Shown here: positions 9,716-14,675 of the stretch, piece after piece
Numbering within the stretch: position 1 is the stretch's first letter
How the letters are laid out: each line of letters starts with the position of its first letter
Assembly: GCF_965641715.1 (NCBI RefSeq)
Contig: NZ_OZ282453.1
Strand: one strand, 5' to 3'
Source of the DNA: Escherichia coli
GTDB taxonomy: Bacteria > Pseudomonadota > Gammaproteobacteria > Enterobacterales > Enterobacteriaceae
Length of the DNA stretch: 64,000 nucleotides
Notes under the pieces: generated by a model
What the model was told of the DNA's origin: nothing
Database searches by the model: none
Seen by the model: only the letters and a program-made list of their open reading frames with translations
Position numbers and translations under genes: made by a program

Positions 9716-12106
9716 ATGGCAATTAACAATACAGGCTCGCGACGATTACTCGTCACGCTAACAGCCCTTTTTGCAGCGCTTTGCGGGCTGTATCTACTCA
9801 TTGGCGGAGGCTGGCTGGTCGCGATTGGCGGCTCCTGGTACTACCCTATCGCTGGCCTTGTGATGCTCGGCGTCGCCTGGATGCTGTGGCGCAGTAAACG
9901 CGCCGCGCTTTGGCTATACGCAGCCCTGCTGCTCGGCACCATGATTTGGGGCGTCTGGGAAGTTGGTTTCGACTTCTGGGCGCTGACTCCGCGCAGCGAT
10001 ATTCTGGTCTTCTTCGGCATCTGGCTGATCCTGCCGTTTGTCTGGCGTCGCCTGGTCATTCCTGCCAGCGGCGCAGTTGCTGCACTGGTGGTGGCACTGC
10101 TGATTAGCGGTGGTATCCTGACCTGGGCAGGATTTAACGATCCGCAGGAAATCAACGGCACCTTAAGCGCCGATGCCACACCTGCTGAAGCTATCTCCCC
10201 CGTTGCCGATCAGGACTGGCCTGCCTATGGTCGTAATCAGGAAGGTCAACGCTTTTCACCTCTGAAACAAATTAACGCCGATAACGTCCATAATCTGAAA
10301 GAAGCCTGGGTGTTCCGTACTGGCGATGTGAAGCAGCCGAACGATCCGGGCGAAATCACCAATGAAGTGACGCCGATTAAAGTGGGCGACACCCTTTACC
10401 TGTGTACCGCTCACCAGCGCCTGTTTGCGCTCGATGCCGCCAGCGGCAAAGAGAAATGGCATTACGATCCTGAGCTGAAAACTAACGAGTCTTTCCAGCA
10501 CGTAACCTGCCGTGGCGTCTCTTATCATGAAGCCAAAGCAGAAACGGCTTCGCCGGAAGTGATGGCGGATTGCCCGCGTCGTATCATTCTTCCGGTCAAT
10601 GATGGTCGACTGATTGCGATTAACGCTGAAAACGGCAAACTGTGCGAAACCTTCGCCAATAAAGGCGTGCTCAATCTGCAAAGCAATATGCCAGACACCA
10701 AACCGGGTCTGTATGAACCGACTTCGCCACCGATTATCACCGATAAAACCATCGTGATGGCAGGTTCAGTTACCGATAACTTCTCAACCCGCGAAACGTC
10801 TGGCGTGATCCGTGGTTTTGATGTCAACACCGGGGAGCTGCTGTGGGCTTTTGATCCGGGCGCGAAAGATCCGAACGCAATCCCGTCTGACGAACACACC
10901 TTTACCTTTAACTCGCCAAACTCGTGGGCACCAGCGGCCTATGACGCGAAGCTGGATCTGGTGTATCTGCCGATGGGCGTGACCACGCCGGATATCTGGG
11001 GCGGTAACCGCACACCGGAACAGGAACGTTATGCCAGCTCGATTCTGGCGCTGAATGCCACAACCGGGAAATTGGCGTGGAGCTACCAGACCGTTCACCA
11101 CGACCTGTGGGATATGGATCTTCCGGCACAGCCGACGCTGGCGGACATCACCGTTAATGGTCAGAAAGTGCCAGTTATTTACGCTCCGGCGAAAACCGGC
11201 AACATTTTTGTGCTCGATCGTCGTAATGGCGAACTGGTGGTTCCGGCACCGGAAAAACCAGTTCCCCAAGGTGCTGCCAAAGGCGATTACGTTACCCCTA
11301 CTCAACCATTCTCGGAACTGAGCTTCCGTCCGACGAAAGATTTGAGCGGTGCGGATATGTGGGGAGCCACCATGTTTGACCAACTGGTGTGCCGCGTGAT
11401 GTTCCACCAGATGCGCTATGAAGGCATTTTCACGCCGCCATCTGAACAGGGCACGCTGGTCTTCCCGGGTAACCTGGGAATGTTTGAATGGGGCGGGATT
11501 TCCGTTGATCCAAATCGTGAAGTGGCGATTGCCAACCCAATGGCACTGCCGTTTGTTTCGAAACTGATCCCACGCGGTCCGGGTAACCCGATGGAGCAGC
11601 CGAAAGATGCCAAAGGCACGGGTACGGAATCCGGCATTCAGCCACAGTACGGCGTACCGTATGGTGTCACGCTCAACCCGTTCCTCTCACCATTTGGTCT
11701 GCCATGTAAACAGCCAGCATGGGGTTATATCTCGGCGCTGGATCTGAAAACTAATGAAGTGGTATGGAAGAAACGTATTGGTACGCCGCAGGACAGTATG
11801 CCGTTCCCGATGCCTGTACCGGTGCCGTTCAATATGGGTATGCCGATGCTGGGCGGGCCAATCTCCACGGCGGGTAACGTGCTGTTTATCGCCGCTACGG
11901 CAGATAACTACCTGCGCGCTTACAACATGAGCAACGGTGAAAAACTGTGGCAGGGTCGTTTACCAGCGGGTGGTCAGGCGACGCCAATGACCTATGAAGT
12001 GAATGGTAAGCAGTATGTGGTGATCTCCGCAGGCGGTCACGGTTCATTTGGTACGAAGATGGGCGACTATATTGTAGCTTATGCCCTGCCGGATGATGTG
12101 AATTAA
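9716..12106 (+). CDS. gcd: Membrane-bound PQQ-dependent glucose dehydrogenase
   Basis: 796 aa from MAINNTGSRR...; N-terminal transmembrane helices followed by a PQQ beta-propeller domain. Confidence 0.93.
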   Translation: MAINNTGSRRLLVTLTALFAALCGLYLLIGGGWLVAIGGSWYYPIAGLVMLGVAWMLWRSKRAALWLYAALLLGTMIWGVWEVGFDFWALTPRSDILVFFGIWLILPFVWRRLVIPASGAVAALVVALLISGGILTWAGFNDPQEINGTLSADATPAEAISPVADQDWPAYGRNQEGQRFSPLKQINADNVHNLKEAWVFRTGDVKQPNDPGEITNEVTPIKVGDTLYLCTAHQRLFALDAASGKEKWHYDPELKTNESFQHVTCRGVSYHEAKAETASPEVMADCPRRIILPVNDGRLIAINAENGKLCETFANKGVLNLQSNMPDTKPGLYEPTSPPIITDKTIVMAGSVTDNFSTRETSGVIRGFDVNTGELLWAFDPGAKDPNAIPSDEHTFTFNSPNSWAPAAYDAKLDLVYLPMGVTTPDIWGGNRTPEQERYASSILALNATTGKLAWSYQTVHHDLWDMDLPAQPTLADITVNGQKVPVIYAPAKTGNIFVLDRRNGELVVPAPEKPVPQGAAKGDYVTPTQPFSELSFRPTKDLSGADMWGATMFDQLVCRVMFHQMRYEGIFTPPSEQGTLVFPGNLGMFEWGGISVDPNREVAIANPMALPFVSKLIPRGPGNPMEQPKDAKGTGTESGIQPQYGVPYGVTLNPFLSPFGLPCKQPAWGYISALDLKTNEVVWKKRIGTPQDSMPFPMPVPVPFNMGMPMLGGPISTAGNVLFIAATADNYLRAYNMSNGEKLWQGRLPAGGQATPMTYEVNGKQYVVISAGGHGSFGTKMGDYIVAYALPDDVN

Positions 12107-12144
12107 GATTTGCTCATATTGCTGTCAAAGTGCGCTTTGTTCAT

Positions 12145-12242
12145 GCCGGATGCGGCGTGAACGCCTTATCCGGCCTACAAAACCCTTCAAATTCAATAAA
12201 TTGAAGAGTTAACGTAGGCCTGATAAGCGTAGCGCATCAGGC
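12145..12242. repeat. BIME: two REP palindromic units in inverted orientation
   Basis: gccggatgcggcgtgaacgccttatccggcctac (12145-12178) and gtaggcctgataagcgtagcgcatcaggc (12214-12242) match the E. coli REP consensus. Confidence 0.85.
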
Positions 12243-12259
12243 AATTTCGTATTTATCAT

Positions 12260-12778
12260 TTACTCATCCGAAAATTTCAGCGACAGGAGTGCATTTTTCA
12301 TTAGTGTCTGATACTGCGTAACGGCATTTTCAGGCATAGAAACCTCCCCCGTGAGCAGCTTACCGTCCCGCGATGTAATCAACCTTAAATTATTGACTTT
12401 CCCTGGTATCAAACTATATGAAAGCAGCCATGCTTTATGCCCATCCACCACCACTTCTTCAGCCTGGGGAGCAGAATTTTTCAGGGAGTTAAGCGTTATT
12501 TCCTTGAATCTATCCAGGTGCTCGGCAGGCAAAGACTGATGCCATTGCGTAATATTAAGATGTACCCGTTTTACTTCATCGTAATAATTTGCCTGTGGTT
12601 CCTGGGGCTGTTGCAGTGTCGCTGCCATTTCCTCTGACATAACATGAAGATTTTCGGGGATTGCGATACTCAATTTAAAGTTTGGGAGAGACTGGCTTTT
12701 CAGCTTTATGTCGGCGTTAGCATTCGCAACCATAAACGAAAGCAGAAACGTCAGAATCAGATGTCGAAACGTAATCAT
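12260..12778 (-). CDS. Hypothetical secreted protein (172-aa precursor, Sec signal peptide with predicted cleavage after ANA)
   Basis: ORF with start MITFRHLILTFLLSFMVANANA preceded by an AAGGGA RBS-like motif; cysteine-free mature part, no recognisable motif; same strand as and 178 bp downstream of cueO. Confidence 0.55.
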   Translation of the reverse strand: MITFRHLILTFLLSFMVANANADIKLKSQSLPNFKLSIAIPENLHVMSEEMAATLQQPQEPQANYYDEVKRVHLNITQWHQSLPAEHLDRFKEITLNSLKNSAPQAEEVVVDGHKAWLLSYSLIPGKVNNLRLITSRDGKLLTGEVSMPENAVTQYQTLMKNALLSLKFSDE

Positions 12779-12956
12779 AAATTTCCCTTTTTGATTATTG
12801 TGGTGGTGCCTGCAAGGTATTACGACACAAAACACGTAATCAGGTGCCCCAGCATTCCATTGTGTTTGCCCAGTTTATGCTTTTCAGACTTATAATCTCT
12901 CACCTGAGACTATTTTTAAGAATTTCGCCTGTATTACAAAATACAGGCGTCGCACG

Positions 12957-14510
12957 TTATACAGTGGTAAACCCTAACATCATCCCCGTATCTTCATGCT
13001 CCAGCAGATGGCAGTGCGCCATATAAGCATGTTCTTTCGGTGCGTCGTGATTAAACTTCACCAGCACTTCACTGACATTGCCTTCTACCTTAACGGTATC
13101 TTTCCAGCCCGCGCGATGAGCCGCTGGCGGTTTGCCATTTTCTGATAAGATACGGAACTGCGTGCCGTGAATATGGAACGGATGCAGCATCATGTCGCCC
13201 ACGCCAGAGATAACCCAACGTTCGTACTGCCCTTTCGCCGCCGCAAACATCGGCTTATTCATATCAAACGCCTGACCGTTGATTTTATTGGCATGGTGGA
13301 AATCGAACTTCCCGCTGTGGTTCATATGATTCATATTGCCGTGCCCCATATGGCCCATCATCTGGCTGTGATCCATTCCGGCCATCGCCTGATCGCCATA
13401 TTTCTCCATTAGCATCTGCATCCCCATCATATCGAGCATCGGGTCCATAGAAAGTTGCAGCTTGCGTACCGTCAGCCCTTCCAGCGAAGGTAACGCAGGC
13501 AGGCTACTTAATGTGTCTGGCAAAGCACCGGAGGCACTAATAGCAATCGGCTGAATCCGCATTACCGGATGCGGCTTGTCAAACGGTGCAATCGCCATCC
13601 CCATCTGGCTGACCGGCAGCGTCACCAGGTCAAAGGGTTTGTTGTCGTTAACCTCCACCAACACTTCAAAACGCTCGCCCATCAGCACCGGCAGCTCGTT
13701 CACCTTCACCGGTTCAGGTAGCAGACCACCGTCGCTGGCAATCACATAAAGCGGGCGATTGTCGCTGGTGGCGAAATTGAGCGAGCGGGCATTACAGCCA
13801 TTGAGCAAACGCAGGCGCAGCCAACCACGCGGGGCAGCGTGTTGCGGGTAGATTGCACCGTTGGTCAGCAACGTATCGCCAAACCAGCCCACGGCGGCGG
13901 TCATCACATCCAGTTGATAATCAATCTGCCCGTCGGCGCTAAATTTCTTATCCTGAACGATCACCGGAACATCATCGATACCCCACTGTTTTGGCAGCAT
14001 TAATTTCAGGATCTCGTCATCTTCAATCACCACCAGACCAGCCAGCCCCATCGCCACCTGTCGCCCGGTCTTGCCATGTTGATGTGGATGGAACCAGCAG
14101 GTAGCGGCAGGTTGATCAACGTTCAAAGTCACCGAGCGCTTGCCACCTGGCGGAATAATTCCCTGTGGGCCGCCGTCGACTTCACCCGGTACTTCCAGCC
14201 CGTGCCAGTGCAACGTCGTCTCTTCCGTCAGTTGGTTATAGATATCAACCGTTACCGCTTTGCCGCGCTGTAATTTCACCGCCGGCCCCAGCAGATTGCC
14301 GTTATAGCCCCAGGTAGTTGCAGTTTTCTCGCCAAAGGTAGACTGACCTGCGCCAATAGTTAACTGAATGCGATTACGGGCATCGGTCGTGAGCAAATCA
14401 GGGATCGGTAACGTTGGGCGTTCCGCCGCAAAGACTGCACGGCTCCACAGTGGCAAGGCTGAAGCCACACCCAGTGCGACGGAATATTTCAAGAAATCAC
14501 GACGTTGCAT
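12957..14510 (-). CDS. cueO: Multicopper oxidase CueO (Tat-secreted)
   Basis: Twin-arginine signal [10 protein letters not shown]; copper-ligand motifs HWHG and [13 protein letters not shown]; Met-rich insert. Confidence 0.95.
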
Positions 14511-14675
14511 AGTTATTTCCTTATTCTTAAGCAGGCGAAACAAAATCAAACGTTGAGCATAGTCCTTCCCCTTACGGGAAGGTCAAGCCGCAGACACAAT
14601 TTAATCGACAATAATGGTCGTCGCCTCGCTCGCAGTGTGCTAACGTTTATCTTCTTTAAGCCCCTGGTAGAAGCA

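Follow-up and report, generated by a model that had tools for sequence, protein, structure and literature searches.

A rarely carried gene in the cueO-gcd spacer of Escherichia coli encodes a predicted exported protein related to DcrB

Described proteins of the Mog1/PsbP/DUF1795 fold

DcrB is a periplasmic lipoprotein of the inner membrane in Escherichia coli and Salmonella; its gene is present in most E. coli, and it has a role in infection by phage C1. Other proteins of this fold are PsbP and CyanoP, the latter likewise exported, which stabilise or assemble photosystem II, and Tsi3 and TplEi, which bind toxins. To our knowledge, the characterised representatives (PsbP/CyanoP, DcrB, Eag, LpqN and Tsi3) are non-enzymatic and bind a partner protein or a lipid, and we know of no signal peptide in the Eag proteins. 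The Eag family and its fold have been described: its members act via partner binding, holding the transmembrane segments of T6SS effectors, and their genes adjoin those for Rhs/PAAR effectors (PMC4524185). For DcrB, synthetic lethality with yciB that arises via defective Lgt-dependent lipoprotein maturation and membrane fluidity has been reported (cited in PMC9487459). Such DcrB phenotypes do not necessarily transfer to the protein that is the subject of the present analysis.

This protein is encoded between cueO and gcd in the window, a 64,000-nucleotide stretch of an E. coli contig (NZ_OZ282453.1). Among the described systems, DcrB (PF08786; PDB 6e8a and 13cz) is closest by sequence, has a similar size and is predicted to occupy the same compartment; furthermore, three members of the family defined below (P0009, P0018 and P0020) carry a cysteine at the lipobox position, as does DcrB. 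However, the window protein is only ~18-20% identical to DcrB, is encoded at a different locus and is accessory. Instead of a lipoprotein signal peptide with its lipobox cysteine, it exhibits a putative type-I signal peptide ending in ANA|D and contains no cysteine at all. On account of the missing lipobox and cysteine, the low identity and the other locus, an assignment as DcrB orthologue was rejected. Since lipobox and cysteine are lacking, the window protein would be soluble and not lipid-anchored like DcrB.

PsbP, CyanoP and the PPL proteins (photosystem II, NDH; lumenal) resemble the window protein in that they are extracytoplasmic, non-enzymatic partner binders, and a weak PsbP match covers its residues 105-168. 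Yet identities amount to 12-17%, Enterobacteriaceae have no photosystem, and we saw no sign of a metal-cluster partner. With the Eag chaperones (EagR1, EagT6/PA0094 and SciW; DUF1795) it has superfamily and fold in common, but Eag-type chaperones are cytoplasmic proteins encoded beside PAAR/Rhs effectors, whereas the window protein bears a putative signal peptide and its gene is flanked by cueO and gcd, with no Rhs/PAAR neighbour. Sequence similarity was undetectable to Tsi3, TplEi and the C-domain of Tli4, which have a PsbP-like fold, and no cognate effector gene was found nearby. The same applied to the mycobacterial secreted proteins LpqN/Mtc28/Apa, with no Mmp-type partner gene in the vicinity.

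Databases already list the product of the gene as a hypothetical or orphan protein, and a number of related entries have received the automatic label DUF1795. What we add is a family and fold for this Escherichia "orphan/hypothetical protein", the observation that E. coli carries it extremely rarely, a fixed cueO-gcd site in three genera, and junctions of the recombination type. The finding is a modest one that neither challenges current understanding nor settles a long-standing question. It appears to exemplify cleanly how one gene can move between genera by flank recombination alone, without a mobile element, and the locus could possibly serve as a marker that distinguishes mainstream E. coli from cryptic Escherichia lineages and from rare recombinants of E. 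coli.

Predicted export, family and fold of the 172-residue protein

The open reading frame (12260-12778, minus strand; 519 bp, ATG start) encodes a 172-aa precursor, and an AAGGGA RBS-like motif (12784-12789, minus strand) is located 5 nt upstream of the ATG. Both features had been proposed in the initial annotation, and RefSeq indeed annotates the identical 519-bp CDS in strain 33F4 (WP_114006819.1, 'hypothetical protein'). An alternative GTG start further upstream, which would give 191 aa, was discarded because its Cys/His-rich N-terminus occurs in no homologue and RefSeq uses the ATG. The GC content of the frame is 43.9% vs 54-55% in the flanks. Read straight from the sequence, the N-terminus MITFRHLILTFLLSFMVANANA|DIKLK shows the tripartite organisation typical of type-I signal peptides, with the n-region MITFRH, a hydrophobic core and the ANA|D cleavage motif; residues 1-22 (12713-12778, minus strand) were assigned as putative signal peptide on this basis. 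The mature part comprises 150 aa with a pI of 6.0 and, as noted above, no cysteine, in agreement with the signal-peptide-bearing, Cys-free precursor on the cueO strand that had been described at the outset. In the AlphaFold2 model a helix spans residues 2-18, and all relatives in the family alignment (A2) begin with a comparable hydrophobic stretch. From these features we infer export and the cleavage site.

As a single sequence, the protein yielded nothing above threshold in Pfam, NCBIfam, PHROG and PADLOC, including zero matches to PF08786 (DcrB/DUF1795). Its best match was the sub-threshold one to Pfam PsbP mentioned above (E 0.015), and equally sub-threshold matches to PCNA inhibitor, prokaryotic STING, TIR and head morphogenesis proteins were treated as chance. 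A profile of 17 family members (alignment A2) matched the DcrB structures 6e8a and 13cz with E-values of 4.4e-6 and 1.4e-5, respectively, across residues 21-170 and thus the whole mature domain. Alignment to DcrB by hhalign gave a probability of 92.8% (E 4e-7, 136 columns). Only one of the 17 members reached Pfam DcrB directly (E 4.9e-4), so that the protein is placed in the family by profile comparison and predicted structure. The AlphaFold2 model computed from the family alignment (pLDDT 89.5, pTM 0.80) displayed the alpha/beta sandwich of the Mog1/PsbP/DUF1795 superfamily, an antiparallel sheet with flanking helices over ~140-160 residues. Foldseek against AFDB50 returned as best match a 'DUF1795 domain-containing protein' of Kluyvera intermedia (40% identity, TM 0.81), together with DUF1795 matches of Limnobaculum and Serratia, all at TM ~0.8; a protein of Klebsiella spallanzanii with 44% identity was among the AFDB relatives, and PsbP/CyanoP were the top-scoring structural neighbours. 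Profile, hhalign and AFDB labels hence agreed on full-domain homology to bona fide DcrB/DUF1795 members. Whereas no known motif had initially been recognised in the mature part, these data indicate that the protein is, by profile and predicted structure, a divergent member of the Mog1/PsbP/DUF1795 superfamily with DcrB as its nearest characterised relative. Invariant columns in the family alignment are limited to M1, P41, P104 and S166, with no conserved catalytic or metal-binding residues among them.

With a cut-off of E<=1e-3, an exhaustive HMMER search of 1.84 bn representatives revealed 19 relatives. These are 25-37% identical to the window protein if the Pseudocitrobacter copy is left aside, and their lengths fall within 170-201 aa save for three, namely two short proteins and one multi-repeat protein of 1,179 aa. 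All distant relatives that were aligned (15/15) possess a hydrophobic N-terminus. Between three allele groups the frame exhibited dN/dS values of 0.33-0.49, and the synonymous excess was significant in two of the three lineage pairs (p=0.003 vs E. whittamii, and p=0.006) and not significant for window vs Pseudocitrobacter (p=0.066). Measured against gcd (dN/dS 0.005-0.05), the constraint is real but much weaker. The window and, with the exception of that from Escherichia sp. E1V33, the other translated copies from Escherichia and Pseudocitrobacter have an intact frame. The initial annotation had named a spurious frame lacking homologues as the case that would undo it; the homologues down to 25% identity that keep length and signal peptide, the significant synonymous excess and the confident predicted fold all argue against such a frame. 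The segment holds a genuine, rarely carried gene under purifying selection.

The cueO-gcd haplotype and its distribution

In the window, gcd (quinoprotein glucose dehydrogenase; 9716-12106, plus strand) and cueO (multicopper oxidase, 517 aa; 12957-14510, minus strand, stop codon at 12957-12959) are convergent and leave a spacer of 850 bp. The corresponding gap measures 201 bp in both K-12 AG100 and O157:H7 380-94, a net surplus of 649 bp for the window. The K-12 spacing of about 200 bp, with which the initial annotation had contrasted the 850 bp seen here, was therefore correct, and the supposition of DNA that is extra relative to K-12 was borne out. A REP pair (BIME) lies 3' of gcd at ~12145-12243, practically where it had been placed before (12145-12242). 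It was recognised by its inverted repeats I1/I2, by alignment, and by matches to the Rfam models ES036 and naRNA4, which are REP-derived.

A multiple alignment of the window with K-12, O157, 33F4, L006, L007 and Pseudocitrobacter delimited a carrier-specific haplotype of 795 bp (12172-12966) that is common to all Escherichia carriers. Carriers and non-carriers align collinearly over gcd and the first REP, diverge from ~12172, so that the inner part of the BIME already belongs to the haplotype, and return to collinearity only at 12967, within cueO. Within this haplotype, 691 bp (12260-12950) occupy the place of ~49 bp of the K-12/O157 spacer, a piece which in K-12 includes the hairpin GCCCGGAGAGATCCGGGC. 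The earlier claim of extra DNA at 12243-12956 thus holds as to the extra DNA, but not as to its limits, which are wider (~12172 in the BIME to 12966 in cueO). Likewise, what had been regarded as an insertion just beyond the REP pair turned out to be a replacement with junctions inside the BIME and in the 3' end of cueO. Both neighbouring proteins are altered at their C-termini: CueO ends in GFTTV* in the window, the other carriers and Pseudocitrobacter vs GFTV* in K-12/O157, and Gcd ends in DDVN* in the window, E. whittamii and the draft genome L006 vs the usual DDVK*, the last residue being K in K-12. These altered ends (12101-12106 in gcd and 12957-12966 in cueO) mark the recombination tract.

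In a sliding window, the identity between the window and Pseudocitrobacter is 93-94.5% in the frame vs ~80% across the whole locus, and in L007, an Escherichia with a 94%-identical backbone, the segment of the frame is 98.5-99.5% identical to that of the window. The dS values were 0.115 for the frame and 0.909 for gcd in comparison with Pseudocitrobacter, and 0.140 and 0.322, respectively, in comparison with E. whittamii. That the segment is far more alike between genera than gcd (dS 0.12 vs 0.91) points to homologous recombination, and the sequence comparison as a whole to a locus-bound cassette passed among lineages and genera by exchange in the conserved flanks. A 36%-identical homologue was found in the same cueO-gcd slot of Silvania sp.; the slot may either have long contained such a gene, which would then have diverged fast and been lost often, or have been refilled.

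A sensitive blastn search detected the segment 12243-12956 in 3 of 5,426 complete E. coli genomes; the three carriers were isolated on a single Swiss calf farm and are nearly identical. By comparison, cueO is present in 5,424 of the same 5,426 genomes. Since nearly all E. coli lack the gene, any function it has is dispensable. Elsewhere it occurs in scattered draft E. coli genomes, E. whittamii, Escherichia sp. E1V33 and Pseudocitrobacter. In every carrier the gene has cueO and gcd as its neighbours and shares the strand of cueO (cueO->ORF-><-gcd), an arrangement seen in the E. coli drafts, L007, Pseudocitrobacter, Silvania, E1V33 and E. whittamii. A word-indexed search of 5.8 bn proteins yielded only two clusters at 90% identity, and repeating it with a profile gained little. 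The first cluster is from Escherichia and includes the exact window protein (P0021, on 35 contigs) as well as variants from E. coli, E. whittamii and unclassified Escherichia, one E. whittamii copy being named "Orphan protein" in UniProt; the second is from Pseudocitrobacter and 88% identical to the window protein. Among 100,044 GTDB species representatives, a narrow-alignment scan retrieved only E. whittamii and Escherichia sp. E1V33 as carriers. Intact 172-aa proteins are recorded on ~100 further contigs, and truncated cluster entries measure 122, 126 and 166 aa. The copy of E1V33 (L016, 5001-5519) is cut short by a TAG at codon 29, and NCBI annotates only the 122-aa remnant P0027; this stop indicates that loss of the gene is under way.

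In E. whittamii Sa2BVA5 (L017), ~700 bp at 5667-6372, absent from the window, separate the REP region of the gene from gcd. They contain broken frames resembling the Zn-ribbon end of an IS200/IS605-type TnpB (CSCCG...CPECG).

Transcription, proposed role and alternatives

The cueO-ORF spacer measures 178 nt (12779-12956, minus strand). In a consensus scan of 12050-13050, neither strand showed a sigma-70-like promoter and no intrinsic terminator was detected for the cueO strand, and inspection of the 178 nt by eye gave no convincing promoter either. The lack of promoter- or terminator-like sites between cueO and the frame makes co-transcription with the CueR-controlled oxidase gene plausible. 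The suggestion of the initial annotation that the frame may be transcribed together with cueO and its product may have a periplasmic role connected with CueO is compatible with the sequence, although the family shows no conserved metal-binding residues. The promoter region of cueO contains a CueR-box-like inverted repeat, TCCTTCCCCTTACGGGAAGGT (14563-14583), with one mismatch to a consensus pattern of the copA and cueO promoters. A perfect hairpin with a 10-bp stem and a 4-nt loop (12926-12949, minus strand) immediately follows the cueO stop codon and is kept in Pseudocitrobacter. It lacks a U-tract on either strand and could be a candidate RNA 3'-end stabiliser, weak terminator, processing site or binding site. 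The same spacer includes a 40-bp stretch (12813-12852) that is present in all Escherichia carriers and absent from Pseudocitrobacter, with conserved sequence on both sides.

We favour, with a probability of roughly 0.6, a joint reading in which an accessory gene for a periplasmic binding or scaffold protein is spread by recombination as a cueO-gcd cassette and transcribed by read-through from cueO. The small protein would be exported by the Sec pathway with removal of its 22-residue signal peptide, and the mature part would fold in the periplasm as a Mog1/PsbP/DcrB (DUF1795) alpha/beta sandwich, giving a soluble envelope protein that acts by binding or as a scaffold and is related to, but not anchored like, the lipoprotein DcrB. 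Because the characterised members of the fold are non-enzymatic and bind partners, such a binding or scaffold function appears most likely. The gene would persist as a cassette swapped among Escherichia and with Pseudocitrobacter through homologous recombination in the flanks. As the simplest model of its transcription, read-through would start from the CueR-dependent cueO promoter, and the frame would therefore be copper-induced.

Alternatively, the product could be a dedicated CueO helper, a PsbP-like periplasmic factor made from the same copper-induced transcript, which would bind the oxidase and aid its copper loading, stability or substrate access. PsbP/CyanoP, its top-scoring structural neighbours, offer a parallel, as they stabilise the metal-cluster side of photosystem II. 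The gene is directly downstream of cueO and on the same strand in Escherichia, Pseudocitrobacter and Silvania. In the latter, a gap of 83 bp separates cueO from the homologue, and the single terminator for both genes, a strong hairpin with a T-run, comes only after the homologue; in the window, too, no promoter- or terminator-like site separates the two genes. However, recombination via conserved flanks keeps the position without a functional link, more than 99.9% of the complete E. coli genomes have CueO without the gene, other family members are found at unrelated loci away from cueO, and the family alignment contains no conserved His, Met or Cys position able to bind copper. We consider a dedicated helper improbable, and quite improbable its bolder version, in which a PsbP-like periplasmic assembly or stability factor is an old, fast-evolving CueO partner, co-transcribed under CueR and lost by most Enterobacteriaceae. 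If a link to cueO were true, a well-studied copper-homeostasis enzyme would gain an accessory factor, and a true CueO partner would mean that the PsbP role of an 'extrinsic subunit of a metal-cluster oxidase', known from photosystem II, also exists for a copper oxidase of bacteria. Patchy distribution, fast evolution (dN/dS 0.3-0.5) and lateral exchange would likewise suit an orphan periplasmic immunity protein that neutralises a toxin of competitors, such as a T6SS lipase or muramidase, in the manner of Tsi3, TplEi or Tli-type proteins. The fold and the signal peptide or lipobox of the family members fit this role, and one relative is located in a variable region with Imm42, RES and RnlA-type genes, while another is plasmid-borne with a T6SS DotU gene close by. 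Nevertheless, at none of the ~12 loci inspected was an effector gene adjacent, nor did we find immunity or paralogue arrays; sequence similarity leads to DcrB and not to the Tsi/Tli families, the PADLOC and NCBIfam searches were empty, and the fold serves many unrelated binding roles, which renders an immunity function unlikely.

A different kind of alternative concerns the state and the origin of the gene rather than the partner of its product. It might be a decaying relic, once functional and now being lost from Escherichia, that is neither expressed nor useful in this strain. This would account for its absence from almost all E. coli, the premature stop in E1V33, the truncated cluster entries and the constraint relaxed relative to the neighbouring genes, and it is consistent with the low GC content and with the failure of the scan to detect a promoter of its own. 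The relic is nonetheless doubtful, as the frame is intact in the window, in all other translated copies but that of E1V33 and on the ~100 further contigs; moreover, the synonymous excess is significant in two of the three lineage pairs (p=0.003-0.006), RBS, signal peptide and fold-defining positions are kept between genera, and several lineages have recently acquired the segment, which loss alone does not explain. Low GC content and adjacent REP sequences might further suggest cargo of a mobile element, be it an IS, a transposon, an integrative element or a prophage remnant, that inserted beside the REPs, as might the IS200/IS605-like TnpB remnant beside the gene in E. whittamii and the occurrence of distant relatives on three plasmids. 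Yet neither terminal inverted or direct repeats nor a target duplication were found around the haplotype, no transposase or integrase is encoded in its 795 bp, and a search of phage genomes returned zero matches. The junctions are instead of the recombination type, one of them inside the cueO coding sequence with donor-type codons, and the locus is identical in every carrier. Since repeats and transposase are missing, a mobile-element origin was rejected and strikes us as barely conceivable, in contrast to the preferred reading of a cassette exchanged by recombination in its flanks.

Across the loci of distant relatives that were inspected, no conserved neighbour gene emerged that would name a partner. 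Two relatives with 24-27% identity, from Budvicia aquatica (L020, 6001-6519) and from an IncF plasmid of Citrobacter farmeri (L025, 5926-6465), are located directly upstream of chaperone-usher fimbrial operons on the same strand. Such positions may be fortuitous or reflect another type of genomic setting for the family; the fimbrial operon was treated as an unproven coincidence and not as a conserved neighbour. A 29%-identical relative on a Morganella plasmid (L024, 5977-6495) lies near a fimbrial gene as well as the T6SS DotU gene. Finally, a 28%-identical relative on a metagenome contig (L018, 2830-10570) resides in a variable region with the Imm42, RES-domain and RnlA-type toxin genes, where it follows an ArsR-type regulator and is ~5 kb away from a PQQ dehydrogenase gene.
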